Virus record (IMG/VR): IMGVR_UViG_3300017917_000332
Span: 1 to 64,000 of that record
Source of the DNA: a virus
Length of the DNA: 64,000 bases
Reading direction: 5' to 3' (one strand)
Of this stretch, positions 4,574 through 50,213 are shown piece after piece. A program made the translations under genes and the position numbers. The notes below the pieces were generated by a model. That model worked only from the letters and a program-made list of their open reading frames with translations. It made no database searches and had not been told where the DNA came from. Each line of letters starts with the position of its first letter. The stretch's first letter is position 1.

Positions 4574-4602
4574 TATTTAAGCATAATAGTAGCACATAAA
4601 TA
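4574..4602. promoter_or_regulatory. Divergent pair of TAAATA late-type promoter motifs
   Basis: TATTTA 4574-4579 (minus strand, 5 nt before ATG 4568) and TAAATA 4597-4602 (5 nt before ATG 4608). Confidence 0.65.
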
Positions 4603-4607
4603 GAAAC

Positions 4608-5786
4608 ATGAACACAGTAAACCTAGTAGTCAACCAATTTAATTTTGACGAAGAAATATTACTAAAAGCAGTTAAAGACAAGAGCGGAACCTATTTGGGT
4701 AAGACTGTTAGTCTATGCCACCACTGTCACCAGCATGTACCAGCTTACATATATCACGATCAAAAACATTTATGGATGGCCAAGGCTTGTAAGTTACACG
4801 GTGTTAGCCATCATATGATTGAAAGGGACTACGAGTTCTACAGTAATTTAAAGTACACCAAAAACACTTTTGGATTCACTCATAAAAATGTAATGACTGA
4901 AGTTACTGATAAATGTAATGCTAACTGTCCCCATTGTTATCATATTCCTGACAACTCAAAGCCGGATGTTAGTTACCAAGAACTAATTGCTAAAATAAAC
5001 AAGTGGTATAAAAAAGGCAGTGACACAAATATTATATTTGCAGGTGCCGAACCTTTGCTACGAAAAGACATTATTGAGTTAGTTGAGACTATAAACATCG
5101 AATTTCCGCAATCTAATATTGCGTCATTGACTAACGGCATTAGACTTGCTGACCGTCAGTTAGTTAAAGATTTAAAGTCTGCTGGACTAAAAAGTGTTCT
5201 TATAGGGCTGAATCATCCTAGTTATCTAAACACTCCTGTAATTAGACAGAAACAATTAGACTCTATTATTAACTGCCAAGAAGAAGGTATGAACATGTAT
5301 TACGTAGGATACACTATGAGCAGTACCTTAGAGCTGTTTGATATCCTAGATGAGATTATGAGTAACCCTTGGTATCCTCCTCAATTTAGAATACGCTACG
5401 GTAGTGACATTGGAAGATATCCCGAACAAGAAAGATTATACGTTAGCGATATCTATAAATTAATCAAACACTGGTGTGATAAGAATAACAAACACTTTGA
5501 GGATATGGAAGGTGATAATAACATTTATCACACTATGGTAAAAGTTGAAGGAAAGCCAATTCGTGTTATCCAATGGTGTGACGAGACTGATATACACATG
5601 GAAGAACTAAGAACCGGACCTTACTGCGATTTTGTTAGCGATGGTTTAACAAACTTCTTGCACCAAGTTATTAGACGCGATGTAGAAAAAAATAAAGGAA
5701 TAGTACTTCCTGATTTGCCCCCTACTAGATACCTAATGGAAAATCAGTTTGATTATTCTGAGTTAGATTTTAAAACTTTAAGATAA
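4608..5786 (+). CDS. Radical SAM enzyme with N-terminal rubredoxin-like CxxC-X20-CxxH domain (MJ0619/Tes-like architecture)
   Basis: SLCHHC…KACKLHG; EVTDKCNANCPHC; GAEP; TNG. Confidence 0.85.
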   Translation: MNTVNLVVNQFNFDEEILLKAVKDKSGTYLGKTVSLCHHCHQHVPAYIYHDQKHLWMAKACKLHGVSHHMIERDYEFYSNLKYTKNTFGFTHKNVMTEVTDKCNANCPHCYHIPDNSKPDVSYQELIAKINKWYKKGSDTNIIFAGAEPLLRKDIIELVETINIEFPQSNIASLTNGIRLADRQLVKDLKSAGLKSVLIGLNHPSYLNTPVIRQKQLDSIINCQEEGMNMYYVGYTMSSTLELFDILDEIMSNPWYPPQFRIRYGSDIGRYPEQERLYVSDIYKLIKHWCDKNNKHFEDMEGDNNIYHTMVKVEGKPIRVIQWCDETDIHMEELRTGPYCDFVSDGLTNFLHQVIRRDVEKNKGIVLPDLPPTRYLMENQFDYSELDFKTLR

Positions 5787-6367
5787 ATTTCTTTAAGAGT
5801 GTTGTTAGGCCATTGGATGTAATCTAAACACGCTCTTTCGTACAACAGAGCAACATCCAACTTACCATCTACTGCTAACTTCTCAACAACTTCTAAACGA
5901 TCTGCATTTAGTATTGGTTTGTAGAAATCAACATCAACGAGGCTTTCCTTATAGTTGCAGGATGTATAAAACGAATAAGCTCTTAGTGTTCCTTTGCTGT
6001 CTGTATAAAAACATTTAGGGTAAAAGTTAGGTTTATATATTTTATACTTGTGCAAATCTTTAACTATATTTTCAAGTTGCATTTGCCAGTTGTCTGGTAA
6101 GAAGTCTTCGCAACTATTTCCGTACCAGTCAAAGTATATCTTCTTGCGACCAATATCAACATTTACATGTTCGGGCATCCAAGAAACGTTGTAGCCTTTT
6201 AAGTCAAACAACATTCTACACTCACGCATGAAACTAGACTCAACTAGTTCTTTAGGGTATTTTGGATCAACAGGATTAAAATCAAGACATGCCTGTGTTT
6301 GGTCTTCATTAACTAATAGCGTAAAAAGACCTTGGTGTAGTCCGTTTGATTTAAAATTATTTTCCAC
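5753..6367 (-). CDS. Degenerate protein-kinase-like fold protein
   Basis: FMRECRML (alphaC-like), LHKYKIYKPNFYPKCF (catalytic-loop-like, lacks Asp); paralog of 14201..14893. Confidence 0.5.
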   Translation of the reverse strand: MENNFKSNGLHQGLFTLLVNEDQTQACLDFNPVDPKYPKELVESSFMRECRMLFDLKGYNVSWMPEHVNVDIGRKKIYFDWYGNSCEDFLPDNWQMQLENIVKDLHKYKIYKPNFYPKCFYTDSKGTLRAYSFYTSCNYKESLVDVDFYKPILNADRLEVVEKLAVDGKLDVALLYERACLDYIQWPNNTLKEIYLKVLKSNSE

Positions 6368-6371
6368 CTAG

Positions 6372-6390
6372 TATTTACTACTCATAAATA
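6372..6390. promoter_or_regulatory. Divergent pair of TAAATA late-type promoter motifs
   Basis: TATTTA 6372-6377 (4 nt before GTG 6367) and TAAATA 6385-6390 (4 nt before ATG 6395). Confidence 0.65.
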
Positions 6391-6394
6391 TCTG

Positions 6395-6922
6395 ATGAAA
6401 TTAATTAGAAACTGTAGTGATATAATTGATTGGGACTACGAAATATCGTTGTTGACTGACGGCAACAGGTTAGTTTACAATGATCAATCCTTTAACAAAG
6501 ATCTACCCCAATTCGCTAAAATGGATAAAGTTTGGCAAGACGCTGGGTATCAATATAACACTGACAGTATTGAGTGGATAAATTATTTTCCAAGGAAAGA
6601 ACTTATTGATAAGTTTTCCGAGCTAGTCGAAGCTAAACCGTGGATGGTTTGGTTCAGTAGAATAAAGCCTGGCAAGATGGCACCATGGCACGAGGATGTA
6701 CATTCAAAAATCAACGAAGTATTGTCTTTAGGAACACCTGTTAGATTCACCTGTTATGTACAGAACCCTCATGTAGGTCATGTTAGTATTGTAGAAAAAC
6801 ATTGTGTGTACATGCCTAATAAAGGGGACATCTATCAATGGCCTTCGCACGATGCGTGGCATTGCGGAATGAACGGCGGACTAGTTGACAAATATATGTT
6901 TAACTTTTGGGGTTACAGATGA
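6395..6922 (+). CDS. Fe(II)/2OG-dependent oxygenase-like (AspH/cupin) protein
   Basis: PGKMAPWHED (HxD) … WHCGMN (distal His). Confidence 0.7.
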   Translation: MKLIRNCSDIIDWDYEISLLTDGNRLVYNDQSFNKDLPQFAKMDKVWQDAGYQYNTDSIEWINYFPRKELIDKFSELVEAKPWMVWFSRIKPGKMAPWHEDVHSKINEVLSLGTPVRFTCYVQNPHVGHVSIVEKHCVYMPNKGDIYQWPSHDAWHCGMNGGLVDKYMFNFWGYR

Positions 6923-9312: not shown

Positions 9313-10131
9313 TCAAAACCTCGGTGGCCATTTAAACCAATTTAACTCTTCAGGTGTGTTACTATTAATTACCTTTACTGTCCAATTGTCGACCCAGTCT
9401 TGGCATTCTTTAGATATCTTAACATCAGGGAATACTGTTTTAACATATTCTAAAAATACATTAGGCGTAGGATGAGGATCTTCATATTTTAATTTGACTG
9501 GAAGATCTGTTCCGTAGTTAATTAAAAGAAAATCATATAGACATGGTCTTGTTAAATTTTTAAAAACATCGATGTATGTATTCATAACATCTGTGTCGAA
9601 CGGAGGATTATTTAAAGTTTTAAAATCACCAACTTCAATTGCTTTAACAAAATCAATTAAATCTTGCCTAGACTGGTCTAATTGAAGAAAGTCGCCTTTG
9701 TTGTATGCGGCTATTCCAACAATCTCATCGGTGCTTAAAAATTTCCAGTTACAGCCCCAATCGTTTAGTACATGGATTGCCGCCGCAATACAGCCAAGCT
9801 CTTTAATTAGGCTTCCTTTTTCGCAGAAATACTTTTCAATCCAGTCGTTATCATATGCTCTATTTGTATGTACTCCTCCGCCAGCGAGCCATTTATCTTT
9901 TACATACCTATCTTCTCTTCCAAGGAATGTCCACATTATAACAACATTATCATCTTTAGATATGTTATGTTTATAACCTGCTTCCATTAACTGTAAAAAA
10001 ATACCAACATTACCTAAACCTGAGAACCCCCAGTTGTGATGGTCAAACTCATAGCCTAATATGTCAGCCCAAGTTGGCCAACGGTAATTAGTCATTGAAC
10101 AGCCAAATGTAAACAGTCTTTTCTTAATCAT
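9313..10131 (-). CDS. SGNH-like hydrolase/acyltransferase-fold protein
   Basis: FTFGCSMT, NWGFSGLGN, C-terminal DPHP. Confidence 0.6.
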   Translation of the reverse strand: MIKKRLFTFGCSMTNYRWPTWADILGYEFDHHNWGFSGLGNVGIFLQLMEAGYKHNISKDDNVVIMWTFLGREDRYVKDKWLAGGGVHTNRAYDNDWIEKYFCEKGSLIKELGCIAAAIHVLNDWGCNWKFLSTDEIVGIAAYNKGDFLQLDQSRQDLIDFVKAIEVGDFKTLNNPPFDTDVMNTYIDVFKNLTRPCLYDFLLINYGTDLPVKLKYEDPHPTPNVFLEYVKTVFPDVKISKECQDWVDNWTVKVINSNTPEELNWFKWPPRF

Positions 10132-10155
10132 GTTAAAATATAACTCAGGATTTTT

Positions 10156-10168
10156 TATTTAATAAATA
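10156..10168. promoter_or_regulatory. Back-to-back palindromic TATTTA-A-TAAATA late-type promoters
   Basis: TATTTA 10156-10161 and TAAATA 10163-10168 (6 nt before ATG 10175) lie between divergent genes. Confidence 0.6.
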
Positions 10169-10174
10169 CCTGCA

Positions 10175-10624
10175 ATGAACAAAACAAACATGAATCAGAT
10201 TGAAGAAGATATTAAAAATTGGGTGAAACACATATCAACTCCAACAGATGCTCTAAACGGGTTTAGTGTTTGTCCGTATGCAAAGGGAGCAGAATACAGT
10301 ATTGTTTTAACAGACGGTAGTGATATTAATCCGCCACCTTGGGATTTTGAATTATTAATCTATGTGCTTCCTGAATTTTGGTCTGAAAATGATCTTGTAA
10401 GTCTAGCAACAGAATATAATAAAATCTATACAGACCTAGTTTTCCTTCCAGACCACAAAGATAGGGATACATTTATTAATGGTGTTCAAACTAATAACGG
10501 GAAACATAACCTATTATTATGCCAATGGAGAGATAGTTTAAACGATGCAAGAGAAAAGCTATCTAAAACATTATACTATTCATTCTGGGATAAACAGTAC
10601 CTAGAAGAAATTCTAAAAACTTAG
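10175..10624 (+). CDS. Hypothetical protein, DUF1415-like N-terminus
   Basis: IKNWV…CPYAK motif. Confidence 0.5.
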   Translation: MNKTNMNQIEEDIKNWVKHISTPTDALNGFSVCPYAKGAEYSIVLTDGSDINPPPWDFELLIYVLPEFWSENDLVSLATEYNKIYTDLVFLPDHKDRDTFINGVQTNNGKHNLLLCQWRDSLNDAREKLSKTLYYSFWDKQYLEEILKT

Positions 10625-11421: not shown

Positions 11422-11969
11422 TACTCTTCTTTAATATCTAAAATCATAGTAACACGCCACTGGTCACTTTTGTTCCAACCGCCGTGCTTTTTCATACCGT
11501 CAAACGAAACAATATCGCCAGTGTCCCATCCTTTAGTTTCGCCTTCTACGTGGAAGCCTACAACATTTGGATCTGTACTAGGCATACTGATACCAATCAT
11601 AGTACCATATGCTCTAACCTTACCAACAACTTCTTCACTTAAATCCCAGTAATCGTCGGTGTGATCTGGAATATAACTCTTTGGCTGGATAAAGTTAACA
11701 CAGACGTTTAGTACCCCAGGGATACTTTTTAAAACCTTCATAGTCTTTGGCCAGTTCTGTGCATATTGGTCATTTATTCTAGTGGCATCAATCAGTGGTA
11801 GTCCCCACCAACCTAAATGATCACCTTCGCCATATCTTTCACTAAACTTAATACCGTCTTTAGTTGGCTCAAAATTTTCCTTCCATGTGCCGTATTCTTC
11901 AATAAGTGTATCTTTTAGTTCAACTAGTTTAGCATAGTGTTGGCATTTTTTAGAATCAATCCAGTTCAT
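11409..11969 (-). CDS. Aspartyl/asparaginyl beta-hydroxylase-family oxygenase
   Basis: PKSYIPDHTD…FDGMKKHGGWNKSDQWRVTMILD; AGGAG SD upstream. Confidence 0.8.
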   Translation of the reverse strand: MNWIDSKKCQHYAKLVELKDTLIEEYGTWKENFEPTKDGIKFSERYGEGDHLGWWGLPLIDATRINDQYAQNWPKTMKVLKSIPGVLNVCVNFIQPKSYIPDHTDDYWDLSEEVVGKVRAYGTMIGISMPSTDPNVVGFHVEGETKGWDTGDIVSFDGMKKHGGWNKSDQWRVTMILDIKEEYWNL

Positions 11970-11986
11970 ATTTTTCTCCTGATAAA

Positions 11987-13123
11987 TTATTTAAGTATTT
12001 TAGATAAGGTGTCTTTAATAAATGTCATTTCTTCTTGAGAAATGTCATAAAAACATAAATGCCAAAACTTGTCCCAGTTGTGATATAGACCAGAGTCATT
12101 TAGTGTTTGTTGAAAATTAGTAAAATCATTAGGATACGCTTGTATCATACTACCTTTAGCTGTAGCTGTTATACCCTTGTCTAGAAATATAGTTTCTAAG
12201 CTCTTGACATAAGGTATAACTGTGTTGTCTATGTAAGATAATAAGTTATTATTGTTAATAAAATCAATTGTTGCTACTGCGGCAACTGCACCTATAGTGT
12301 TAGTACTCCTAGTGTTACCTATTGCCAACCAACTGTTACTTACAACTTCTGTAATTTTAGAATCAAGAACAGTCAAACAGAGATTGTCGTGTCCTGAGGT
12401 CAATGCTTTTCCTAAAACTATTATGTTAGGCTTTAGTCCTAAAGAATGACTGTGTACCCAACAACCCATTCGTCCTATACCCGTTAGCACTTCGTCAACG
12501 CATAATAAAAGATTGTGTTTAGTAATTGTAGTTTGTAAAGAATTCCACCAATCGGCTGGGTTATCAGATAGGCCTTTTCCCCAAGGTACTGTATCTACTA
12601 ACACGCCTGCTATATTGTCTGCACCAATTTGGTTAACAGTTAATTCTAAATCATCAAAAAATTCTACAAATGTTACTGACGGCCAGTCTTTGCTAAAAGG
12701 TTGCCCGTGAACCATTTGCCATCCTGTAATCGAGCCACTGTGGTAACTATTTTTTCTAACAAGAATAACATTTCTTTTCTGTCCTTGTTCAGCCCAGTAG
12801 TTCCACATTATTTTTATAGCATTATCTACGGCATCGCTACCTGACAGTGCAGATATAAAAGAGCTATATCTACTATCAGTAATAGCATCAATAGACTCTT
12901 CTAAGTCGTTCCAAACTTTATGTTTCAGTCTCCAGAAACTTGTATTAGCATTATCTAAATGTAACTTTATTCTATCAGTAATAAACTTGTTACCGTAGCC
13001 TAATACGTTAGTGCCTGCAGATGCATGTAGATCAAATTTATTATTGATGTAATGACCAGATGCATTTAACAACACATCTGAGTTGTATCCTTGGTTTATT
13101 GTAAAAATATCTAAACGTTTCAT
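11987..13123 (-). CDS. PLP-dependent aminotransferase, class III
   Basis: SGSDAVDNAIK, SYHSG, DEVLTGIGRMG, LGKALTSG (PLP Lys). Confidence 0.9.
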   Translation of the reverse strand: MKRLDIFTINQGYNSDVLLNASGHYINNKFDLHASAGTNVLGYGNKFITDRIKLHLDNANTSFWRLKHKVWNDLEESIDAITDSRYSSFISALSGSDAVDNAIKIMWNYWAEQGQKRNVILVRKNSYHSGSITGWQMVHGQPFSKDWPSVTFVEFFDDLELTVNQIGADNIAGVLVDTVPWGKGLSDNPADWWNSLQTTITKHNLLLCVDEVLTGIGRMGCWVHSHSLGLKPNIIVLGKALTSGHDNLCLTVLDSKITEVVSNSWLAIGNTRSTNTIGAVAAVATIDFINNNNLLSYIDNTVIPYVKSLETIFLDKGITATAKGSMIQAYPNDFTNFQQTLNDSGLYHNWDKFWHLCFYDISQEEMTFIKDTLSKILK

Positions 13124-14157
13124 ACAATACTTCTTTTCTGACCTTCTCTCTCAAGGTCAAGAGTACAACAGTGAACTCCGCTTTCCCAGAATAGACCGTG
13201 TCGTAGTCTAGTAGAGTAGCATTCTATACCCTGTGACTCAAGATACTTTTCTAGCTTAGGTTGAGGATTGCTTAACAAAATCTTATTATGATCAAGTACT
13301 AGAACGTTTGTATCAAAACAAACATCTTGTGCATAACCTCGCCACTCACCAAACCACTTTTGCATCCAAGCTTCTGTAAACTTGCCGCCGCTAGCTTTCA
13401 TATCACTAACATACCGAGACAAGTCTGGAAACGAAACATAATCTTTTATTTCAATGACCCTTTTGTTTTGTAAGCAAACAGGTACCCAATCTTTAGTTAA
13501 GCAAACTACGGTTTCATCGTCGGTCATAAACCAACATTGATCAATGTGTCCCCAACCGTTAGAACTAGTACCGACATTATCTACTATGTTAGTTCCCCTA
13601 GGAAGATTTCTTCTCAACCATTCTTGTCCTAATTTAGTTCCCGGACCTTCATGATTTAAGATTAAACAGTCTCCGGTCTTAGATGCTGTAGCTGTATGCA
13701 ACAGCAATTTTTCTTTGTATCGTTCTTGGTATATTTCTACACCTTTAGTAAACCAAACTTCGTCATTTTGAAGTTTAGGAATATCAGGTATTGGCTGTTG
13801 TATCCAGTTATATCCCTGTTTAAACAATTCCGTAAAGATGTTATAATAAAAATACTGATCGTAATAACGTTCTTTCATGCTAGTAAATGTGCTGTATATA
13901 CAGTCGCCATATACTAGATATTGATCCCTTGGAACCATTGGAGGCATTACATTCTCAGCAGAGCTAGATACCGTTGGACGGTACACTTCGATGCCAAAAG
14001 ATTTTAAAAGAGTTGCTAAACTGTCAAAGTCTTCTTTGGTTTCTTCTAGTATTTTCGCAAGATATCCGTCAACTTGGTTGTTGTCGGTCTTGAAATCAGT
14101 TGTAGTATCTCCTACTACAACTTTGGTTAATCTATCCCATTCGGTCCAAACTGTCAT
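13120..14157 (-). CDS. Amidinotransferase (glycine/inosamine-phosphate amidinotransferase family)
   Basis: WTEWDRL..VVVG, PRD, GHID, SGVHCCTLDL.REG (Asp-His-Cys catalytic set). Confidence 0.88.
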   Translation of the reverse strand: MTVWTEWDRLTKVVVGDTTTDFKTDNNQVDGYLAKILEETKEDFDSLATLLKSFGIEVYRPTVSSSAENVMPPMVPRDQYLVYGDCIYSTFTSMKERYYDQYFYYNIFTELFKQGYNWIQQPIPDIPKLQNDEVWFTKGVEIYQERYKEKLLLHTATASKTGDCLILNHEGPGTKLGQEWLRRNLPRGTNIVDNVGTSSNGWGHIDQCWFMTDDETVVCLTKDWVPVCLQNKRVIEIKDYVSFPDLSRYVSDMKASGGKFTEAWMQKWFGEWRGYAQDVCFDTNVLVLDHNKILLSNPQPKLEKYLESQGIECYSTRLRHGLFWESGVHCCTLDLEREGQKRSIV

Positions 14158-14179
14158 AATAAAATTATTCTTTACACAC

Positions 14180-14196
14180 TACTTACCTGATAAGTA
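14180..14196. promoter_or_regulatory. Inverted pair of TAAGTA late-type promoter motifs
   Basis: TACTTA 14180-14185 and TAAGTA 14191-14196 (4 nt before ATG 14201). Confidence 0.55.
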
Positions 14197-14200
14197 CAGC

Positions 14201-14893
14201 ATGTTTCAAGAATACGAATACTACTATAACAATGTTCCAGGAATTGGACTTTGTAGAAATAATCTAATCTATACTAGTTTAATAAACAAAGATAAGACAG
14301 TGTTTGTCCAATGGTACCACAACGACAGCGAGTATCACAGGGGACAAAACCAAGTAGTCGATCCATCTAAGATGGAAGAAAAATGGTTAAGAGAAGTTAA
14401 TTACCTTACACAGATGCGAAATGCATATCCGGATTTGATTCCTAAAATTATTAAGATTGATCTGGACGCCAAGAAGATTTACTTAGAGATCGAAGGTCCC
14501 GACTTTTGGGAACAAGCAGGATGTGACACAAATAACTACGATAAAGTTCTTCCTGATTGGCAAGATCAAATGTTGAACATCATTCAATCACATCGTGAAT
14601 TAGGATTCCACAAATACAGTATGCACCCTAGCAGTTACTTTGTAGTTGGAGGTAAACTAAAAAGTATCAACTACTTCTTTACTTACAAGGATCATGAACC
14701 AAACATATCAATAGCAGACGTAGAAAGTCACATCTACTCAACTAGACAAGATGAGATGCGTAAGCACTTATCAACACTAGGTATAGATTGGAACAAACCT
14801 CAGCCGTGGAGTGTATTTGATACACTATGTTGGGAAAGTTTTAGAACTAACTATCCAGCAGAATTTATTGAGAAGGTCAAATGTATAAAATAA
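14201..14893 (+). CDS. Degenerate protein-kinase-like fold protein
   Basis: WLREVNYL, HRELGFHKYSMHPSSYF…LKSINYF (HxD/DFG equivalents altered). Start reset to ATG 14201 because the upstream extension overlaps the amidinotransferase antisense. Confidence 0.55.
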   Translation: MFQEYEYYYNNVPGIGLCRNNLIYTSLINKDKTVFVQWYHNDSEYHRGQNQVVDPSKMEEKWLREVNYLTQMRNAYPDLIPKIIKIDLDAKKIYLEIEGPDFWEQAGCDTNNYDKVLPDWQDQMLNIIQSHRELGFHKYSMHPSSYFVVGGKLKSINYFFTYKDHEPNISIADVESHIYSTRQDEMRKHLSTLGIDWNKPQPWSVFDTLCWESFRTNYPAEFIEKVKCIK

Positions 14894-15435: not shown

Positions 15436-16507
15436 GTTTGTCTTCTAGGTCGTATTCTATACACGGGTCAAATATCCTTGCCGCACTTTCAGAGCAGATA
15501 AGACCGCAGGCCGCTAGCCTACCATCATCATAACCGTTGTCCCATCCTGCCTTTATCTTAGAAAAGAACTCACTGTTTACAACATCATACCAACTATTCT
15601 TGAGAATATTAACTTTATCACCACCGTAGTTTTCCCATAAGGTAGTCCAACTATCACCTAGTTCTTTAGTTTTATATAAATGAAAACAAGTTCCTGTGTA
15701 GACACAGGGGAAAACATATCCTTCTGCACTAATATAGATACTGCTCTTCCTTTGGGCTTCGCAGGTTATTGGACTGTTGTTAGATATGGCCAGAGCATCG
15801 TGTATTTTAAAAACTCGATGTTTGCTGAGAATTAGTGGATGTACTAATTGTTTATTCGTTGGTTGTTCAATTTTAATTTGAAGTTTCTTATTGATGCTTT
15901 GCATTTCAAAAAGCGCATCTAATAAGAACTTATGACTCTTACGAACAATAAATCTATCAAATCCTTGGCTCAATGCAAACTGTCTTGCTTCTTCAACTTG
16001 ATGTTCATTATGTTTAAAAGCAATCCACTGCCATTCAGCTTCGCCGCCTGCATCAATAAACGCTTTAGAATTTTCAACAACCTTATTCCATCGCACATTT
16101 ACTCTATAGATATGGTTAGTGTCTTCTAATCCGTCAATAGCAAATCTAACCCACGAGCCTTTTCCAAGGATAGTAGCAAGTTCTGCCCACCATTCTGGAT
16201 TACGCATACCACCGTTAGTACTAACTTTAATGTTAATATGGGGTGCTCTTTGCTTAATAGCCTTACAAACTTCTAAGAAATTTGGTGCGGCACAGGGATC
16301 ACCAACCATTCCGCTAAAGAATATAGTGTCTAAATTAGCTAAAACTTCACCAGGAATAGTTTCTGAATAGAACTCAACTGGCAAATAGCTTTGGTTGAAC
16401 CAACTATAATCGCCTGGTTTAAGTTCTCTAGTGCAACTTGGACAGGCCGCATTACATAATGCACTATGTTCAATGTCTAGTTCTTTGATCTGCTTGTAAA
16501 AATCCAT
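15398..16507 (-). CDS. Radical SAM/SPASM enzyme, type B
   Basis: CNAACPSCTR, GMVGDP, STNGG, FAIDG, FKHNEHQ, C-terminal C…G.VFPC…CGLIC; start at ATG 16507. Confidence 0.9.
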   Translation of the reverse strand: MDFYKQIKELDIEHSALCNAACPSCTRELKPGDYSWFNQSYLPVEFYSETIPGEVLANLDTIFFSGMVGDPCAAPNFLEVCKAIKQRAPHINIKVSTNGGMRNPEWWAELATILGKGSWVRFAIDGLEDTNHIYRVNVRWNKVVENSKAFIDAGGEAEWQWIAFKHNEHQVEEARQFALSQGFDRFIVRKSHKFLLDALFEMQSINKKLQIKIEQPTNKQLVHPLILSKHRVFKIHDALAISNNSPITCEAQRKSSIYISAEGYVFPCVYTGTCFHLYKTKELGDSWTTLWENYGGDKVNILKNSWYDVVNSEFFSKIKAGWDNGYDDGRLAACGLICSESAARIFDPCIEYDLEDKLIANAGVSSNSP

Positions 16508-16512
16508 GAATA

Positions 16513-16543
16513 TATTTATGGGGTGTGCTACCATGAATAAATA
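16513..16543. promoter_or_regulatory. Divergent pair of TAAATA late-type promoter motifs
   Basis: TATTTA 16513-16518 (5 nt before ATG 16507) and TAAATA 16538-16543 (5 nt before ATG 16549). Confidence 0.65.
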
Positions 16544-16548
16544 TTTCC

Positions 16549-17166
16549 ATGGAACGCCAAATTAAACTTGACCTCACTGCTGATATTAACGAACTTAGAG
16601 AGTTCTATAATACCATTAAGACAGACTTTGCTGACAGAAAATGGATAGCAACTGAGCAAGCAAAGTATATTAAACGAGAAGCATACAATAACCCAAACAT
16701 TGATCTTTCAAAGATGCCAGGCGGTTGGGCATTAACAACATATCTCAAAGACGACAGCCAAATATGCGCACCTTGGAATGTTTTAACTAACGATTTTACC
16801 GACGGAAAGAAAAGAACCAACATGGTATTTGGTATTGCAGAACGTCTATTAGATAAAATACCTATGGCATATAGACTAGGAATCAGTGTTACCCCAGGCG
16901 GCAACTATATTGAATCACACGAAGATGACGCATGGCATATACATTTTCCAATTTATAGTCCGCCTAAAAGTTTCTTTACCTGGGACAATGAGAATAGAGA
17001 ACCAGTAGACTGGGAACATTACGAAGCTGACGGAACTTCATGGGCGTTAAACACTCAACTAATGCACAGTGTTAAGAATTTAGATACAGAAGATAGAGTA
17101 CACATGTTCTTTAGCGTCAAGCAAGAAGACATGCCAGCATTGTTACAAATTACAGGACAGATATGA
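16549..17166 (+). CDS. AspH-like Fe(II)/2OG oxygenase
   Basis: PGGNYIESHED..HIHFPI…NTQLMHSVKN…DRVH. Confidence 0.7.
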   Translation: MERQIKLDLTADINELREFYNTIKTDFADRKWIATEQAKYIKREAYNNPNIDLSKMPGGWALTTYLKDDSQICAPWNVLTNDFTDGKKRTNMVFGIAERLLDKIPMAYRLGISVTPGGNYIESHEDDAWHIHFPIYSPPKSFFTWDNENREPVDWEHYEADGTSWALNTQLMHSVKNLDTEDRVHMFFSVKQEDMPALLQITGQI

Positions 17167-22252: not shown

Positions 22253-22952
22253 TTGCCCACTCTCGTTCTTTACACCAAAAACATTTCCCGCACGTTGGCA
22301 CAAACTGTCCCGGTGTGTAGGTCTCATAAGTTATGTTTGGAAATTCGCCTTCACAACTTCTGGTTAAGTTTAACAACTTTTCAAGACCTAATTCTTTATA
22401 TTTTAACACAATCCAACTCTTATCTACAAACCTAAAAGGATGACAAGCTAACTTGCCCAAATGAATCATTTTTTCTAAATGCCTGTTATCATTAGTTGGA
22501 TCGATATTTCTTGCTTCTGGACCGCCTTCGACATTTTTAGGATTTCGAGTAACTCCGTTAAAGTATGCATCGACGTCGTAGGTAATGCATACGTATTCTG
22601 CAAAAGATCTTAATTCTAAAGTATCACCGCTAACAGTTTTACCATACTCATCTGTTATCATTGTACCATAGGCGTGTTCCATTTCTGGAGGTATAAAATT
22701 AGTATGTAACTCAAAGTTTATATGAACAAACTCTTGTCTTAACCAATTATAAACATTTTTAAAATCTTGTTGTTGCCAAGGTTTAGTTTTCCAGCACCGT
22801 ATGTTATTAATAATGTGTACGGTAAACGGCTCAACACTATTATCTTTAACTGTTTGGCATACCATATAAGCCAACAAGGCACTGTCAGCACCGCCGCTAA
22901 CGGCAATAGCAACGCTTCTCCAATCTTTGCTAAACGGTATTTCAACTTTCAT
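22236..22952 (-). CDS. QueC-like PP-loop ATPase (adenine nucleotide alpha-hydrolase superfamily)
   Basis: VSGGADS PP-loop; C-terminal TRSC…CGKCFWCKER Zn site as in QueC; YGQ/PxRN motifs not seen. Confidence 0.7.
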   Translation of the reverse strand: MKVEIPFSKDWRSVAIAVSGGADSALLAYMVCQTVKDNSVEPFTVHIINNIRCWKTKPWQQQDFKNVYNWLRQEFVHINFELHTNFIPPEMEHAYGTMITDEYGKTVSGDTLELRSFAEYVCITYDVDAYFNGVTRNPKNVEGGPEARNIDPTNDNRHLEKMIHLGKLACHPFRFVDKSWIVLKYKELGLEKLLNLTRSCEGEFPNITYETYTPGQFVPTCGKCFWCKEREWAIEQSK

Positions 22953-22963
22953 AAGTATAATTA
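22952..22963. promoter_or_regulatory. Interdigitated divergent late-type promoter motifs
   Basis: TAAGTA 22952-22957 lies 5 nt before + ATG 22963; palindromic TAATTA 22958-22963 lies 5 nt before - ATG 22952. Confidence 0.5.
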
Positions 22964-27287: not shown

Positions 27288-27309
27288 TATTTACAAACGA
27301 ATATATAAT
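27281..27309 (+). promoter_or_regulatory. Consensus sigma70 (early) promoter
   Basis: TTGACA 27281-27286, 17-bp spacer, TATAAT 27304-27309; predicted +1 falls at about the first base of the tRNA-like RNA. Confidence 0.85.
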
Positions 27310-41160: not shown

Positions 41161-41384
41161 AAGTACGAGAAGGCAATTATAGATGGCTAGCAGAGGTTTG
41201 GAGTGATGATGATTCCGAACCTCTTGTTGCAGAAGGCTTTAAAGAACCCTATCCTGAAGAAACATACCAGGAAATAAATCAATGGTGCATCGATAATTTA
41301 GGGTATCATGCAAGAACTTCGTACCATGTCTTTGAATTCAAAAAGCGTTCGGACTTAGACTGGTTTTTACTCCGTTGGTCATAA
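41151..41384 (+). CDS. Hypothetical protein
   Basis: WC…F.FK…D..WFLLRW small phage-protein pattern. Confidence 0.6.
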   Translation: MDIEVREGNYRWLAEVWSDDDSEPLVAEGFKEPYPEETYQEINQWCIDNLGYHARTSYHVFEFKKRSDLDWFLLRWS

Positions 41385-41392
41385 TTAGTAAT

Positions 41393-42763
41393 ATGAACGA
41401 AAAAACCATATGGCTTAAAGAAGCCAAAACTGTATTAGATAGAACTGGCCCAGGTATGTGCCTTGCAAAATGGTTGCAGGTAACACTACACTTGCAAAAT
41501 GGCCATACTCACAGTTGCCACCATCCCAACACCCACAAAATACCTTTAGAAGAAATACAAGCAGATCCCAGTGCTTTACATAATACTTCGTTTAAAAAAG
41601 AACAACGCAAACTAATGATGACTGGACAGCGTCCAGACGAGTGCCATTACTGCTGGAATATTGAAGACAATGTGCCGGCAGGCGCAGATGTTTTTAGTGA
41701 TAGAATCTACAAGAGCACTGAAGATTGGGCAGGTGAAAAGCATTACTTTGATGTAATGATTAAAGGTTGGGAACAGAATATTAATCCAACATACCTTGAA
41801 GTTAGTTTTAGTCACGCATGTAATTTTAAGTGTGCCTATTGTAGTCCTCACATTAGCAGTAAGTGGATGGAAGAAATTGAACAGCACGGCGAGTATCCAA
41901 CTAGTTTCAAATACAACAGTCTAGAACATACCAAGTACCAAAACAAAATGCCAATTCCATTAAAGGAAGACAATCCGTATGTAGAAGCATTTTGGAAATG
42001 GTGGCCTAGTGTTTATCCAAACCTGCATACATTCCGTATCACCGGCGGCGAACCATTAATGAGTAAAGATACTTTTAAAGTTCTTGACTATATCATTGAA
42101 AATCCTAATCCTAAACTAGAACTTGCCATCAACAGTAATTGCGTACTTCCAGATAAACTATTTGACAAGTTTCTTGAAAAGATTAAAGTTATTCAAGAAA
42201 ATAACCTAGTAAAAAAATTCACTCTGTTTACTAGTGCAGAAGCATATGGTAATAAAGCAGAATATATTCGTAACGGAATGAATTATGAAACTTGGTTATC
42301 TAACTGTCATAAATTTTTAGAAACTATCCCTAACGCACATTTTAGTATAATGAGTACGTATAATGCTTTATCGATTACTTCTTATACAGAATTTCTAAAA
42401 GATGTTTTAATTTTAAAATTGAAACATTATAATACATCAAGAGGTATTACATTAGATATTCCATATCTAGATAATCCAAAATGGATGAGTGTGAGAATAT
42501 TACCAACCGAGTACGTTCCAATGTTGCTCAAACAAGTTCAATTTATGAAAGATAATAACTGCGAGGGCAAAGGATTCCAAAGTTGGGAAATTGAAAAGTT
42601 GGATAGAATCCAATATCTAATGAAAGAAGATCCAGAACAAAATTGGCTTAAGGATTTTTGGATATTCTTTGACGAACACGATCGTAGAAGGAATACTAGC
42701 TTTTTGGACACATTCCCAGAGCTAGCCAAATTTTATAACGACTGTAAAAAATTGAGCAGTTGA
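41393..42763 (+). CDS. Radical SAM enzyme, type A
   Basis: MCLAKW…SCHH…CHYCW; CNFKCAYC; TGGEP; TAATTA 41382-41387 lies 5 nt before ATG 41393. Confidence 0.9.
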   Translation: MNEKTIWLKEAKTVLDRTGPGMCLAKWLQVTLHLQNGHTHSCHHPNTHKIPLEEIQADPSALHNTSFKKEQRKLMMTGQRPDECHYCWNIEDNVPAGADVFSDRIYKSTEDWAGEKHYFDVMIKGWEQNINPTYLEVSFSHACNFKCAYCSPHISSKWMEEIEQHGEYPTSFKYNSLEHTKYQNKMPIPLKEDNPYVEAFWKWWPSVYPNLHTFRITGGEPLMSKDTFKVLDYIIENPNPKLELAINSNCVLPDKLFDKFLEKIKVIQENNLVKKFTLFTSAEAYGNKAEYIRNGMNYETWLSNCHKFLETIPNAHFSIMSTYNALSITSYTEFLKDVLILKLKHYNTSRGITLDIPYLDNPKWMSVRILPTEYVPMLLKQVQFMKDNNCEGKGFQSWEIEKLDRIQYLMKEDPEQNWLKDFWIFFDEHDRRRNTSFLDTFPELAKFYNDCKKLSS

Positions 42764-44053: not shown

Positions 44054-44103
44054 GGCTTTAGGATACTCGTTATCTAAGATAAATACTGGACGAGAGACCT
44101 ATT

Positions 44104-45594
44104 ATGAGCCAAATTTTTACAATCGAAAACGACAAAATCGTAATCAAAAAGCTGTTATTAGAAGAGCTTCAAGGGAACATTGTTCACCATGGTGAACTAA
44201 GCCTAAGTGGCCCTGTTGAAGTTACTGGCGAGTTAACAGTTGATACACTCAAAGTTAAAAACCTTATTACCGAGTCTTCAATAAAGAATGCTACGTTTGG
44301 CGAATGGGCAGTCATTGAAGAAGCAGACCTTTTAGGTAAAGGTTTAAGTTGGACTTGGGGTAAAGGTCATGTAAGTTTAGGTTATAGACCCGGGGGTCGT
44401 TTAGGCGTTAACGGTGATGTAGATCTCGATGCAGGTAAATCATATCAAATTAACGGTGTTACTGTCCTTTCGGAAACAGAGCTTGCTCCGCAAGTTACTA
44501 AGAGTAGATTAAAGGAACTTGGCCCTCTAAAAGGCCTAAGAGTAACCGGAGACGCACTCGTTGGTGAATTTGCATATTTCAATAGCAATACACAACGCTT
44601 AGGTATCGGAACAGACGAGCCTAATGGTAATCTTAGTGTTGCCCAGGGTGACTTAGAAGCAATTATCAGTTTTAATAAAGATGGTATAGTAGAAATTGGT
44701 TCCTATACTAACACTGATGTGTCGATTGTAACTGATAACACCTCAAGGGTAACATTTAAGAAAACAGGCGAAACAGTATTTGGTAACGAAGTAACAAAAA
44801 ACGCAGATGTAAGAATTTACGGTACACTAACTGTTGACACTGTAGTTACTGACAATAGAATTGATCGTTATCAACCTTTAGAGTTTAAAACATCTAGAGA
44901 GCGCGGTATATACGGACAGGGTTTAATTTGGACTGGCACTGGCAATATGCGTCAATTAATTATGATGGCTAATCCAGACAGACTGTGGACTACAGAAAAT
45001 CTTGACCTTGCCGCTGACCGCAGTTACTATATTAACGGAGAGCCTGTATTATCTTCAGTAGGTTTAGGTAGTTCCGTTACACAGTCAAATCTATCAAAAT
45101 TAGGTACGCTAGAAAGCCTAACAGTAGCTGGCGAAGCTACTTTTATGGAACGTGTTAATGCTAGCCGTACAGTTATTAACGCAAAAGTTATTGAGTTTAA
45201 TGATGGTTCTGACTTTGTTATTTCAAATTCAAAACTCCATGCTAGCGACAAGATGAGTTTCTCTGTAAGAGGAGACGAAGTCTACTACGCAGACTTAAAC
45301 GAAATCGCAGTCGGTAACAAACAAAATCCTAATAGACCAGTAAAGGTATTTGGCCAATTAACTGTCGGTGTTAACAATCCAGATCCAGATATTAGTCTTG
45401 CAGTCAAGGGAAATATCAGCTTTGCTGATAAAAAGTTCTTAACAGGGTCATCTGCGCCTGCACAAGGTTCATTCTCTAAAGGAGATGTTTGCTGGAACAA
45501 TAATCCTGCACCAGACAACTACATTGGTTGGGTTTGTGTTGAAACAGGTTCACCGGGTCGTTGGCTACCATTTGGTTCTATCGCTAGACAATAA
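44104..45594 (+). CDS. Virion structural protein (fibre-like, beta-rich)
   Basis: Repeated YxINGxxVLS…S.L..LG.L..L.V.G units, RLGIGTDEP, C-terminal GW.C…G.PG.W; TAAATA 44080-44085 upstream. Confidence 0.65.
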   Translation: MSQIFTIENDKIVIKKLLLEELQGNIVHHGELSLSGPVEVTGELTVDTLKVKNLITESSIKNATFGEWAVIEEADLLGKGLSWTWGKGHVSLGYRPGGRLGVNGDVDLDAGKSYQINGVTVLSETELAPQVTKSRLKELGPLKGLRVTGDALVGEFAYFNSNTQRLGIGTDEPNGNLSVAQGDLEAIISFNKDGIVEIGSYTNTDVSIVTDNTSRVTFKKTGETVFGNEVTKNADVRIYGTLTVDTVVTDNRIDRYQPLEFKTSRERGIYGQGLIWTGTGNMRQLIMMANPDRLWTTENLDLAADRSYYINGEPVLSSVGLGSSVTQSNLSKLGTLESLTVAGEATFMERVNASRTVINAKVIEFNDGSDFVISNSKLHASDKMSFSVRGDEVYYADLNEIAVGNKQNPNRPVKVFGQLTVGVNNPDPDISLAVKGNISFADKKFLTGSSAPAQGSFSKGDVCWNNNPAPDNYIGWVCVETGSPGRWLPFGSIARQ

Positions 45595-45654
45595 TCTGTA
45601 CTTTTTATAGATTTTGCGACGCCTATAAATATTTGTCACAAGGCAAATACTATT

Positions 45655-45984
45655 ATGGGCAAAATTACAGAACAACTACATAAACAAATCAAAGGCTGGA
45701 GAGTTTATTCGGTTATAGCACCGGCAATATTCACAGCCGCATCAGCGTGGCTATACCTTCATTATGGTACACCGTTCGAAACTATTTTTTACACAGGCTT
45801 AATCGTTTTATCAGTTACTTGTATCAGTTGGTGGCATTGGAGTCTATCAACTATGGTTACTATGTTAGCCATTATGAAAGACACAGACGACCACTTTGAA
45901 GGCGTCCAACAAGAACTAAAACGACTAAGAGAAAATATGAAACCGGACTTACGTGTAGTCAAATCTATTGACATTAACAAATAA
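45655..45984 (+). CDS. Two-TM membrane protein with C-terminal coiled coil (holin-like topology possible)
   Basis: Two hydrophobic segments; TATAAATA 45624-45631 upstream. Confidence 0.55.
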   Translation: MGKITEQLHKQIKGWRVYSVIAPAIFTAASAWLYLHYGTPFETIFYTGLIVLSVTCISWWHWSLSTMVTMLAIMKDTDDHFEGVQQELKRLRENMKPDLRVVKSIDINK

Positions 45985-45995
45985 ATTAGTATAAT
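45968..45995 (+). promoter_or_regulatory. sigma70 promoter for queD
   Basis: TTGACA-N16-TATAAT. Confidence 0.7.
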
Positions 45996-46795: not shown

Positions 46796-46803
46796 AGCAA
46801 ACA

Positions 46804-46849: not shown

Positions 46850-46862
46850 ATTACTCACACAC

Positions 46863-48108: not shown

Positions 48109-48341
48109 GCCTTAGGTGCTTTTGGTGCCTTTGGCTTTCTTGGTGCTTTTGGTTTTGCACCGCCCTGCTTCTTAGGCTTTTGACCGCCTTGTTTTTTAGC
48201 AGGTGCTGGCTTTGCTTGAGGTTCTGGTGCTTTTTCTACAACAGGTGCAGGTTCTTGTACAACAGGTGCCTCAACCTTATAAGGTGCTTCTGGTGCTGGT
48301 TGGCTACCAATACCAAAAAGCTTCTTAAAAAAGTTAATCAT
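48105..48341 (-). CDS. Small Pro/Lys/Ala-rich basic protein
   Basis: AAGGAG SD, TAAATA (minus strand, 48361-48366), KKQGG x2 and PKA repeats. Confidence 0.7.
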   Translation of the reverse strand: MINFFKKLFGIGSQPAPEAPYKVEAPVVQEPAPVVEKAPEPQAKPAPAKKQGGQKPKKQGGAKPKAPRKPKAPKAPKA

Positions 48342-48392
48342 AGTTAATCTCCTTGTTGATTATTTATGATTAAATATGCTACTATATTAAAA

Positions 48393-49319
48393 ATGATGGA
48401 AAATACTCCTGTTATTACTGTTACCTGTGCTAGAGATTTGCCAATGCTAGAATTGCAGGCTCAAAGCATACACAATTTTTTATCTAAAGATTGTCCAGTA
48501 TTCATTATAGTAAACGAAGATGATACAGATTTTTGGCAGTTAGAATTTGATAAAAACATAAAACATTATTATCAACATCATAAACTAACTATTATCTATA
48601 AAAGCGAATTTCAAAGCAATTGGTCACAGTGGATACCGAGTATTGCCAACCCCTGGTCTGTGGGTTGGGAAACTCAACAGATACTAAAGTTAGCAATCTC
48701 TGAGAAAATACACTCGCCTCGGTATCTTGTTTTAGACAGTCAGAACTTTTTAATTAAACATTGGGATCCGAGTGTATATCCTCAAATGGGGTCTAAGGTT
48801 CCAGCAAGACCCGGCAATTTTGTTATGCCTGTAGAAATCTGGAACCAGTACTCAGAAAGTCTCGATATTAGTCTAGCACCTCCTACAGACAGCACAATGT
48901 CTATGTGTACTCCAATATTTTTTAAAACTAAGCTAGTTAAAACATTAATTGAACACGCAGGTGGCATTGTTAAGTTTACAAACTGGTTTAAAAATGCCAG
49001 CAAAATTAAAAGCGAATTTATACTTTACTTAATTTGGGCTGAAAAACAAAACGGGTTTGAAAGACACCATTATATGATTGATATATCTAAAGACTGGGCT
49101 AATCCGTACCTACGAGACTGTAGAACAGAAGAAGAATTTAACAACTTCGTATCGTTTGTTGGAGTACACGATTCACACGCATGGATCAGCATAAATCACA
49201 GAGCGTGGGGTAACATGACCCAAGAACAATACAAAAACCTCAGCACGGTTCTTTCTCACTACAATCTAACTCCAAAGTTTGAGCAATACCGTAGCGAATA
49301 CGTAGACATTAAAATTTAA
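48393..49319 (+). CDS. Glycosyltransferase-like protein (DUF6492/GT-A-like)
   Basis: GWETQQILKL…YLVLDSQNF; TAAATA 48371-48376 upstream. Confidence 0.55.
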   Translation: MMENTPVITVTCARDLPMLELQAQSIHNFLSKDCPVFIIVNEDDTDFWQLEFDKNIKHYYQHHKLTIIYKSEFQSNWSQWIPSIANPWSVGWETQQILKLAISEKIHSPRYLVLDSQNFLIKHWDPSVYPQMGSKVPARPGNFVMPVEIWNQYSESLDISLAPPTDSTMSMCTPIFFKTKLVKTLIEHAGGIVKFTNWFKNASKIKSEFILYLIWAEKQNGFERHHYMIDISKDWANPYLRDCRTEEEFNNFVSFVGVHDSHAWISINHRAWGNMTQEQYKNLSTVLSHYNLTPKFEQYRSEYVDIKI

Positions 49320-49330
49320 ATAAATATAGG

Positions 49331-49888
49331 ATGTACAATTTTATCAAGTGGACTTTAAACGAAGGCAAAACTCCAAAAACCTTAGAATTACTGCCTTTGC
49401 CATATAAAAAAGACGAATTAGATCCTGCTATCAGCGAGGACACAATCAACTACCACTATGGTAAATTAGCCAAAGCATACGTTACACGTTTTAATGACGG
49501 CGAGGGCGATGCTGAATTTAACGAAGCTGGTGCATTTTTACACAACATACTATTTCAACAATATCAAGCACCTAGTAGAAATAATATTCCAGACGGAACT
49601 GCGGCTGAATTTATAGAAAAACACTGGAAAACATTTGATCGTTTTCAACAGGAATTTAACAAAGTTGCAATGTCTATACAGGGTAGCGGGTGGGTTTATT
49701 TGGCTAGAGATGGCGAAATAAAGACCGTTACAAACCATCAAATCAAGCAAGATATCGTATTGTTAATTGATTGGTGGGAACATGCTTGGGCATTAGATTA
49801 TCAACACGATAAGAAAAAATACTTAGAAAACCAGTGGAAGATTATTAACTGGAATGTAATTAGTGCTAGAGTTGGCCTAGTTGTTTAA
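49331..49888 (+). CDS. Fe/Mn superoxide dismutase
   Basis: LPY…L.PAISE.T..YH, HNILF, GSGW, DWWEHAW; TAAATA 49321-49326 lies 4 nt before ATG. Confidence 0.9.
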   Translation: MYNFIKWTLNEGKTPKTLELLPLPYKKDELDPAISEDTINYHYGKLAKAYVTRFNDGEGDAEFNEAGAFLHNILFQQYQAPSRNNIPDGTAAEFIEKHWKTFDRFQQEFNKVAMSIQGSGWVYLARDGEIKTVTNHQIKQDIVLLIDWWEHAWALDYQHDKKKYLENQWKIINWNVISARVGLVV

Positions 49889-50153
49889 GACTGCTAACTG
49901 GCATATCCCATATCTTACGAGCTTCAACACCCTTTTCCTGTGCAAACTTTTTAACATCACAGTCACCACAAACGTGGTAGTAATTATTGTTTAAACGCTT
50001 AGGATCCATGTTTCCCTTGTCTCGTTTAAATATTCCTTGGCAACAATCACAACGAAAGATCAACACAGTTTTCTTTCGTGTATAGGCATGCATAGTACCG
50101 TACTTACTCTTACGGTAGTGCGCTTGTTGTGCGTATTCTTGTCCCAAGTACAT
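49866..50153 (-). CDS. Zn-finger hypothetical protein
   Basis: CDCC…CGDC; TAAATA (minus strand, 50159-50164) lies 5 nt before ATG. Confidence 0.65.
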   Translation of the reverse strand: MYLGQEYAQQAHYRKSKYGTMHAYTRKKTVLIFRCDCCQGIFKRDKGNMDPKRLNNNYYHVCGDCDVKKFAQEKGVEARKIWDMPVSSLKQLGQL

Positions 50154-50213
50154 ATTACTATTTACATTAAGGTTATAAAATCCTTTTGCTAAATATGATA
50201 TCGAGGGGCTATT

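Follow-up and report, generated by a model that had tools for sequence, protein, structure and literature searches.

Late genes of bacteriophage T4 are transcribed from TATAAATA promoters, which are read by gp55 together with the co-activator gp33 and the sliding clamp gp45 (PMC2988020, PMC7892883). Late boxes with a matching core have been reported for T4 (PMC2988020), for cyanophages as NATAAATA (PMC2984593), and for phages CBB and GAP32 as ATAAATA (PMC5259590). Promoters that lie directly before a start codon are also known. In Deinococcus-Thermus, the -10 region is often found next to open reading frames (ORFs), and such genes are expressed from leaderless mRNA (PMC12340547, PMC3160421). 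Most middle and late mRNAs of the Thermus phage phiYS40 are leaderless, according to the summary given in PMC3594737 of Sevostyanova et al. 2007 (PMC1885378). Here, we analyzed the first 64 kb (64,000 nucleotides [nt]; the window) of the IMG/VR viral contig IMGVR_UViG_3300017917_000332 (74,452 bp), in which a T4-type late box, TAAATA, directly precedes the start codons of a class of genes. We consider it likely that these boxes are gp55-type late promoters, predicted to yield leaderless or near-leaderless mRNAs. Comparisons were made with a relative, IMGVR_UViG_3300017917_001123 (331,570 bp; 93% complete), which has about 55 of the 82 genes of the contig in common at 25 to 97% amino acid identity, a radical SAM cluster among them.

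A late-type box abuts gene starts

About 13 genes of the contig have the box 4 to 6 nt (mode, 5) before ATG and no Shine-Dalgarno (SD) sequence. The hexamer TAA(A/G/T)TA, or TAADTA, occurs at this distance upstream of 18 of the 2,362 ATGs in the contig, and 13 of these 18 are gene starts, comprising 11 first-ATG starts plus 14201 and, on the minus strand, 16507. The box is present at 13 of 82 gene starts versus 5 of 2,280 other ATGs (odds ratio, 86; Fisher P = 3e-16). An earlier note on this DNA had proposed that the hexamer lies 4 to 6 nt before start codons. Every site that it listed was present in the sequence, and positional enrichment over background was evident despite the overall depletion of the motif.

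Annotation-free counts of TAAATA-N5-ATG gave 6 sites in the contig versus 0 in a backwards control, with 0 to 2 sites at neighboring spacers, and 20 sites in the relative versus 1 in the control, with 1 to 9 at neighboring spacers. All 20 sites in the relative open ORFs of at least 70 codons (P about 1e-14; ORFs of at least 60 codons are opened by 20% of all ATGs). The start codon that follows TAAATA-N5 is almost exclusively ATG: the relative has 20 ATG, no GTG, and 1 TTG that is probably internal, and the contig has 6 ATG and no others. The spacer histogram of the relative is bimodal, with a sharp peak at 5 (17 genes) that has a shoulder at 7 to 8, and a broad hump at 18 to 33.

Genes with an abutting box (3 to 8 nt before ATG) lack SD 4-mers altogether (0/9 in the contig and 0/33 in the relative), as the earlier note had stated for these starts. 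In comparison, an SD 4-mer is found in 152 of the 338 genes of the relative (45%) that fall outside the abutting class, including genes that have the box farther upstream (P = 1.7e-8). The first 40 nt of the predicted mRNAs are also less structured in the abutting class, with a mean minimum free energy of -1.5 versus -3.3 kcal/mol in other genes at equal GC (P = 1e-4).

Box sequence and placement

Overall, TAADTA is rarer than chance, with 139 copies seen versus 244 +/- 19 in shuffled sequence. TAAATA itself is more than 2-fold underrepresented, both in the contig (45 copies versus 84 to 103 expected) and in the relative (146 versus 304 to 381 expected). Of the TAAATA copies, 40 to 45% are sense oriented and fall within the 40 nt before starts, which together make up 2.2% of strand positions. 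Avoidance elsewhere combined with concentration upstream of genes is the signature of a DNA signal under counter-selection.

With both genomes pooled, TAAATA precedes 28 genes at spacers of 4 to 6, TAAGTA precedes 3, and TAATTA precedes 4. The core is preceded by A, T, or G and almost never by C, giving an active core of (A/T/G)TAAATA; the logo from 84 boxes reads DTAAATA, with nothing conserved further upstream. We therefore retained only part of the hexamer TAA(A/G/T)TA as first proposed: the A form stands, the G form is a minor variant, and TAATTA was rejected as a motif member, its count at spacers of 4 to 6 being at background with no enrichment. The term genome-wide, as applied to the motif, refers here to a contig that is 20% complete by CheckV.

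Conservation of boxes and start codons

Box and spacing are kept in the orthologs of 4608, 6395, 16507/16549, and 22952/22963, while the rest of these gaps has diverged. The ortholog of 4608 retains ATAAATA at a spacer of 4. That of 6395 has GTAAATA at a spacer of 4, with protein conservation from residue 1. In the ortholog of 16507, the first ATG aligns with the start proposed here and is preceded by TTAAATA at a spacer of 5, and the ortholog of 16549 has TATAAATA at a spacer of 5, with synonymous codon changes from codon 2 on. The orthologs of 22952 and 22963, which are separated by a 12-bp gap, have TTAAATA at a spacer of 5 and ATAAATA at a spacer of 7; the minus-strand site at 22952, a TAATTA variant in the contig, has a true TAAATA in its ortholog. 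Protein conservation with synonymous changes from codon 1 or 2 indicates that the ATGs at 4608, 6395, 16507/16549, and 22952/22963 are real starts.

Start codons had been reassigned from the motif at 4568, 14201, and 16507. These corrections are reasonable, and the orthologs back the starts at 16507, 22952, and 22963; homology of the relative to gene 14201 begins at the residue matching 14210. Among the sites originally listed, those at 28324, 41393, and 6367 are weak, and one good site, at 27281 on the minus strand, had been missed. The layout is otherwise ATG only, and the ortholog of 6367 has no conserved ATG. The 28324 ORF has no homolog in the relative. In the ortholog of 4568 (265,650-265,690, minus strand), the arrangement is TAAATA-N5-ATA-ATG with an in-frame stop just upstream, and the predicted leader is 3 nt. 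This arrangement suggests that near-leaderless variants may be tolerated.

Late-gene association and a candidate sigma factor

The same box is also used in a second, leadered layout. Among the upstream regions of the 82 genes, about 9 have the box 18 to 30 nt before the start, several of them with an SD-like purine run in between. Further genes of the leadered class lie beyond the window at 66797, 67850, and 70468. An SD 4-mer is present in 15 of 31 leadered genes of the relative (box 14 to 40 nt before ATG). T4 late mRNAs have ribosome-binding leaders that contain an SD sequence. The earlier equation of late with leaderless does not hold: in both genomes, about half of the boxes are 18 to 38 nt upstream with an SD in between, for example at 44104, at 48341 on the minus strand, and at GTG 50214.

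In the relative, genes for the terminase large subunit, tail tube, head-tail adaptor, and virion structural proteins are among those with an abutting box, and the leadered class includes the baseplate wedge, tail sheath, tail fibers, and baseplate hub. With terminase, tube, and adaptor genes behind one layout and sheath, wedge, and fiber genes behind the other, both classes hold canonical late genes. Late-type boxes in the window precede the virion-protein-like gene 44104 and the operon of a 3,909-amino-acid (aa) gene.

The element is a -10 box of the TATAAATA type without a -35 element, with the same 6-nt core as in T4 and looser requirements at positions -13 and -12. As a sigma70 -10 element, TAAATA is poor. 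Perfect sigma70-type promoters in the same DNA (Table 1) imply a host sigma factor of ordinary specificity, so that something else must read the TAAATA box. A gp55-like sigma factor, which the earlier note had suggested looking for in the rest of the genome, was not found in the contig and is present in the relative, as a 321-aa protein encoded at 121,399-122,364 (L009:1000-1965) next to an SbcD/gp47 homolog, as in T4. This protein matches T4 gp55 (E = 2e-7; 34% identity over residues 22-116) and the profiles phrog_12791 (E = 2e-86) and phrog_234 (E = 6e-27). Pfam gives no family for it, and PHROGs alone recognizes it. Five of the seven T4 pocket residues for bases -12, -9, and -8 are retained (N13, R57, F86, Y97, and T99). 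No Sigma70_r2-type sigma factor was found in the relative. Searches with IF3_C and ribosomal protein S21 returned 0 matches in both genomes and thus no evidence for a phage factor favoring leaderless translation.

It is probable that (A/T/G)TAAATA is a late promoter, a shortened form of the T4 TATAAATA, and that host RNA polymerase recognizes it through a phage gp55-like sigma factor. The gene for this factor would lie outside the 20% fragment represented by the contig, as suggested by its presence in the 93%-complete relative.

Predicted transcription start and mRNA class

Two uses of the promoter are predicted. In leadered use, the box would act from 18 to 38 nt before the start with an SD in between, as in T4. 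In abutting use, where the box ends 4 to 6 nt before ATG, the transcript would begin on the A of AUG or within 1 to 3 nt of it. With -12, -9, and -8 as the flipped bases of the T4 open complex, TATAAATA occupies -13 to -6 and late transcription in T4 begins 6 nt beyond the box, so that a 5-nt spacer sets the transcription start (+1) on the A of ATG. By the same T4 geometry, spacers of 4, 6, and 7 to 8 put +1 within 1 to 3 nt of the A. Having no ribosome-binding leader, such mRNAs would be translated by the leaderless route, with a 70S ribosome and initiator tRNA on a 5'-terminal AUG. We infer gp55-type reading of the box, the +1 position, late timing, and leaderless translation. Start-codon identity, leader length, and accessibility are known to determine how leaderless mRNAs are translated (PMC8459731), and the low 5' structure of the abutting class fits this.

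The sigma70-type promoters of the relative (TTGAC-N17-19-TANNNT; n = 110) show an ATG-abutting peak of their own at a spacer of 6, with 9 sites (7 with long ORFs) versus 0 to 3 at neighboring spacers. The sigma70 -10 hexamer spans -12 to -7, so a spacer of 6 sets +1 on the A. That both promoter classes keep a leaderless distance of their own points to a constraint on transcription start and not to an RNA-level ribosome signal. The complementary proposal that early genes are SD led also failed as a general rule, since several perfect sigma70-type promoters are likewise fused to ATG at spacers of 6 to 7. Some early, host-sigma genes thus also look leaderless from their promoter placement. Perfect or near-perfect sigma70-type promoters 6 to 7 nt before ATG and without an SD are found in the relative at 42472, 43831, 207653, 21538, 229269 (minus strand), and 10516. 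Outside the window, at 73160-73205 of the contig, TTGACA-N17-TAAAAT is followed at 7 nt by the start at 73203.

Divergent gene pairs

An inverted pair of boxes is found in 8 of the 9 divergent gaps of the window. Coordinates had been given for seven such pairs and are correct. In four of these gaps (10156, 14180, 48361, and 50190), one of the two boxes is 18 to 24 nt from its gene and is leadered, not abutting. Distances between paired boxes vary from 0 to 25 nt, whereas each box holds its distance to its own gene; this combination indicates two promoters and not one palindromic operator. The start codons of 4568 and 4608 are separated by 39 bp. In the tightest pair, 22952/22963, each box overlaps the start codon of the opposite gene.

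We propose that these are back-to-back promoters with start codons 10 to 41 bp apart, each box being tied to its own gene. Paired open complexes would have to overlap, making alternate firing probable. At 22952/22963, where the starts are 10 bp apart and each box lies over the other ATG, two open complexes could not coexist, which again points to alternate firing. Individual boxes of both layouts are listed in Table 1 with the perfect sigma70-type promoters.

Table 1. Late-type boxes and perfect sigma70-type promoters in the window
Feature	Coordinates	Strand	Remarks
TAAATA (4574-4579) + N5 + ATG 4568	4566..4579	-	Abutting, predicted leaderless; radical SAM/SPASM gene
TAAATA + N5 + ATG 4608	4597..4610	+	Radical SAM with HMPTM-type zinc ribbon; divergent partner of 4568
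TAAATA + N4 + GTG 6367	6365..6377	-	Possible abutting promoter, uncertain: GTG start
ATAAATA + N4 + ATG 6395	6385..6397	+	Putative abutting late promoter
TAAATA (10156-10161), 24 nt before ATG 10131	10129..10161	-	Leadered, no clear SD; 1 nt from the 10163 box, back to back
ATAAATA + N6 + ATG 10175	10163..10177	+	Putative abutting late promoter
TTAAATA, 18 nt before ATG 11969	11967..11993	-	Leadered, AGGAG between; Asp/Asn hydroxylase-like gene
TAAGTA, 22 nt before ATG 14157	14155..14185	-	Possible leadered promoter; G variant, weaker evidence
ATAAGTA + N4 + ATG 14201	14191..14203	+	Abutting, G variant; gene start moved from 13991 to 14201
ATAAATA + N5 + ATG 16507	16505..16518	-	Radical SAM; abutting; start moved from 16534
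ATAAATA + N5 + ATG 16549	16538..16551	+	Hydroxylase-like; abutting; divergent partner of 16507
ATAAGTA + N5 + ATG 22963 (+) and ATAATTA + N5 + ATG 22952 (-)	22950..22965	both	Overlapping putative abutting promoters, 10-bp gap
GTAAATA + N6 + ATG 27281	27279..27293	-	Putative abutting late promoter, absent from the earlier list
TTAAATA + N5 + ATG 28324	28313..28326	+	Doubtful: 55-codon ORF overlapping the end of gene 27783-28340
ATAATTA + N5 + ATG 41393	41382..41395	+	Radical SAM; weak: T variant, box includes stop codon of upstream gene
ATAAATA, 18 nt before ATG 44104	44080..44106	+	Leadered, GAGAG purine run between; virion-protein-like gene
TATAAATA, 23 nt before ATG 45655	45626..45657	+	Putative leadered late promoter
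ATAAATA (48361-48366), 19 nt before ATG 48341	48339..48376	-	Leadered, AAGGAG between
TTAAATA (48371-48376) for DUF6492 gene	48339..48376	+	Candidate starts 48366 or 48393; 4 nt from minus-strand box
ATAAATA + N4 + ATG 49331	49321..49333	+	Putative abutting promoter immediately after stop codon of preceding gene
GTAAATA + N5 + ATG 50153	50151..50164	-	Putative abutting late promoter
CTAAATA, 18 nt before GTG 50214	50190..50216	+	Leadered, GAGGGG between; operon with 3,909-aa virion-type gene
Perfect sigma70-type promoters TTGACA-N16/17-TATAAT (12/12)	27281-27309, 37414-37442, 42760-42788, 45968-45995	+	37414 (N17) precedes DNA ligase gene

Alternative explanations

Several observations weigh against gp55-type promoters that yield leaderless mRNAs. 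The +1 position is extrapolated from T4 geometry, and the secondary peak at spacers of 7 to 8 in the relative implies leaders of 2 to 3 nt or a flexible +1. An SD sequence also typically lies five nucleotides from AUG, so similar spacing would be expected of a translation signal. Gene starts were taken from a simple in-house caller (first ATG in longest ORFs; 82 genes in the contig). At two sites the box is not conserved: the region upstream of the 14201 ortholog has no box, and the 27281 ortholog has an SD instead. No match to T4 gp55 was found in the contig, itself a 74-kb fragment representing 20% of the genome. The gp55-like protein of the relative has the pocket changes L54Y and H95F as well as about 140 additional aa inserted behind the N-terminal helix (321 versus 185 aa in T4), an insertion also present in PA5oct. 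Queries with the T4 gp45 protein and with Pfam PF09116 gave 0 matches in the contig, the relative, and PA5oct (T4 control, E = 4e-53), and a Syn9 gp33 query matched HTVC008M but not the relative or PA5oct; divergent analogs may be present. In view of both the long form of gp55 and the lack of detectable T4-type gp33 and gp45 in the relative, the T4 mechanism of activation may apply only in altered form. The insertion might replace the gp33 and gp45 cofactors.

These same features of the sigma factor would fit an account in which the box serves as a late promoter without the mRNAs being truly leaderless, either because a divergent sigma factor working without gp33 and gp45 uses a different box-to-start distance or because translation proceeds mostly from longer read-through transcripts. 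The subpeak at spacers of 7 to 8 is in line with the first version, and 49331 lies right behind its upstream gene, where translational coupling is possible. We regard this account as unlikely, since it is hard to square with the sharp 5-nt mode, the exclusive use of ATG, the lack of an SD, and the low 5' structure. The sigma70-type peak is one base further out, as expected if +1 is the A of AUG, and the 10- to 41-bp divergent gaps have no space for another promoter outside the neighboring gene. A translational role for UAAAUA itself, as an SD-independent ribosome-binding or enhancer element 5 nt before AUG in transcripts that start further upstream, would explain spacings of 4 to 8 nt that resemble SD-to-AUG spacing, and A/U-rich leaders can bind ribosomal protein S1. 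However, the same box stands 18 to 38 nt before canonical late genes with a normal SD in between, where it cannot be a ribosome site, and the motif is the late box of T4, cyanophages, and CBB/GAP32. Its removal from coding sequence on both strands is better explained by a DNA signal than by an RNA element, and the sigma70 -10 hexamers show a parallel ATG-abutting peak, all of which leaves the RNA element with quite a small probability.

The inverted pairs in 8 of 9 divergent gaps could also be taken for palindromic operators (TATTTA...TAAATA) of a dimeric phage regulator. This is highly improbable, because half-sites are separated by anything from 0 to 25 nt whereas the distance from each box to its own ATG is fixed, and because boxes without a partner stand at the same spacing before unidirectional genes (49331, 27281, and most sites in the relative). 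In a genome of 60 to 64% A+T, an AT-rich hexamer could turn up by chance in intergenic DNA that is itself AT rich, and chance may account for TAATTA, which is at background. For TAAATA, chance is refuted by the positional, ORF, and depletion statistics together with ortholog conservation, and we assign it next to no weight. An extension of the gp55-type leaderless reading, which we put forward as speculative and rather doubtful, is a two-channel late program. In such a program, the long gp55, acting without gp33 and gp45, would make both SD-led and leaderless mRNAs; the leaderless set (terminase, tail tube, adaptor, and radical SAM cluster) would be selectively translated or timed through a phage-induced change in the host initiation machinery; and back-to-back pairs that share a melted region would act as toggles. 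If true, this would place a translational switch on top of the transcriptional one.

Comparison with other phages and bacteria

T4 resembles the system described here in the core box, the virion and packaging genes downstream, the lack of a -35 element, and a gp55 homolog beside a gp47 homolog (in the relative). It differs in that the box here is shortened, with A, T, or G at -12 and -13 free, gp55 is of a long form, and gp33 and gp45 were not detected. Among cultured phages, the RaK2-like jumbo phages CBB and GAP32 (PMC5259590) and PA5oct (PMC7318152) have the nearest homologs of long-form gp55, with 43 to 48% identity. For CBB, ATAAATA was predicted before structural genes, and its authors likewise did not find gp33 or gp45 (PMC5259590). 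The PA5oct transcriptome paper gives sigma70-like promoters only and contains neither the term "leaderless" nor a TAAATA-type late motif (PMC7318152).

Counts of TAAATA-N5-ATG per genome, each set against the backwards control, showed no clear excess in T4 (10 versus 5) and no such layout in PA5oct (15 versus 12), RaK2 (5 versus 17), GAP32 (5 versus 8), Syn9 (3 versus 3), or S-PM2 (5 versus 3). A moderate excess was seen in the cultured Pelagibacter myophage HTVC008M (14 versus 4), often as TAAATAGTA..ATG, as at 50153 and 4568. HTVC008M differs in having a 147-kb genome and a detectable gp33; it is classified in the Kyanoviridae and is not a close relative of this jumbo phage.

Among systems with leaderless mRNAs, phiYS40, as summarized in the source cited above, is alike in being a lytic phage that expresses later gene classes as leaderless mRNAs from promoters abutting the start codon. 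Its host is Thermus thermophilus, and its promoters are read by the host sigma factor. Here, in comparison, the promoter is probably of gp55 type, leaderless mRNAs are predicted for no more than about half of the late units, and 45% of genes in the relative have an SD 4-mer. In Deinococcus-Thermus and other leaderless-rich bacteria, a -10-type box likewise stands a short, constant distance before ATG and no SD is present; those systems are cellular and sigma-A dependent, whereas this one is viral, with two promoter classes each at its own spacing.

Leaderless mRNAs of later phage gene classes and ORF-adjacent -10 regions are thus already known. Full-text literature searches found no paper on gp55-type boxes fused to start codons, and the gp55-type version appears to be an unpublished, recurrent variant. 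If confirmed, it would mean that uncultured aquatic phages, which are abundant, use the leaderless route for a whole class of virion, packaging, and auxiliary-enzyme genes, and that gene finders expecting an SD miscall such starts, several of which are corrected here. The phage may also exploit or induce a host state that favors leaderless translation, as has been proposed for phiYS40. In practice, box-N5-ATG may serve as a simple rule for calling late genes and their exact N termini in metagenomic phage contigs.

Genome context

The CheckV completeness of about 20% corresponds to an estimated genome size of roughly 330 to 370 kb. Annotations of a T4 gp9/10-like baseplate protein, MazG, ClpP-like proteins, and terminase, together with affinities to PA5oct and RaK2, identify the phage as a jumbo myophage of the T4 superfamily, within the PA5oct/RaK2 lineage. 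Its closest counterparts in culture are the PA5oct group and RaK2/121Q-like jumbo phages; megablast of 24 kb of the contig against 50,697 phage records found no close relative. First impressions of baculovirus- or poxvirus-type TAAG/TAAAT late initiators, an N4-like phage, or a cyanophage were dropped on the same annotations and affinities. ARAGORN returned 0 tRNAs and Rfam 0 families in the window.

Gene content includes the gp9/10-like baseplate protein, DNA ligase, UvdE, MazG, two ClpP-like proteases, the virion-protein-like gene, and the 3,909-aa virion-type ORF. A radical SAM cluster of about 27 kb (101-27287), with alternating strands, has its counterpart at 239 to 271 kb in the relative. 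At least seven of its genes code for radical SAM proteins, and five of these proteins have SPASM domains; the cluster also encodes a tryptophan halogenase, two Asp/Asn hydroxylase-like proteins, and a class-III aminotransferase. Since the cluster is largely driven by late-type boxes, we take it to be late expressed, a timing read from its promoters only. An eighth radical SAM gene lies outside the cluster at 41393.

Host-type consensus promoters are dense in the 27- to 47-kb block, with six further 11/12 sigma70-type matches in addition to the perfect ones. The perfect promoter at 27281 coincides in part with the start of gene 27281, which is on the minus strand, and no obvious ORF is seen in the roughly 140 nt that follow the promoter. 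The 3,909-aa ORF (50543-62272, plus strand) is located directly 5' of the gp9/10-like baseplate gene, and only its residues 3164-3357 were matched in the relative. A Pfam Phycobilisome match in this protein is marginal (residues 373-457; 22.7 bits versus a cutoff of 22.2). Two neighboring ClpP/prohead-protease-like genes, 36156-36776 and 36838-37410 on the plus strand, match phrog_94 with E values of 2e-39 and 3e-31, and the second of these (36838) has a GTG start with an ATAAATA box 30 nt upstream.

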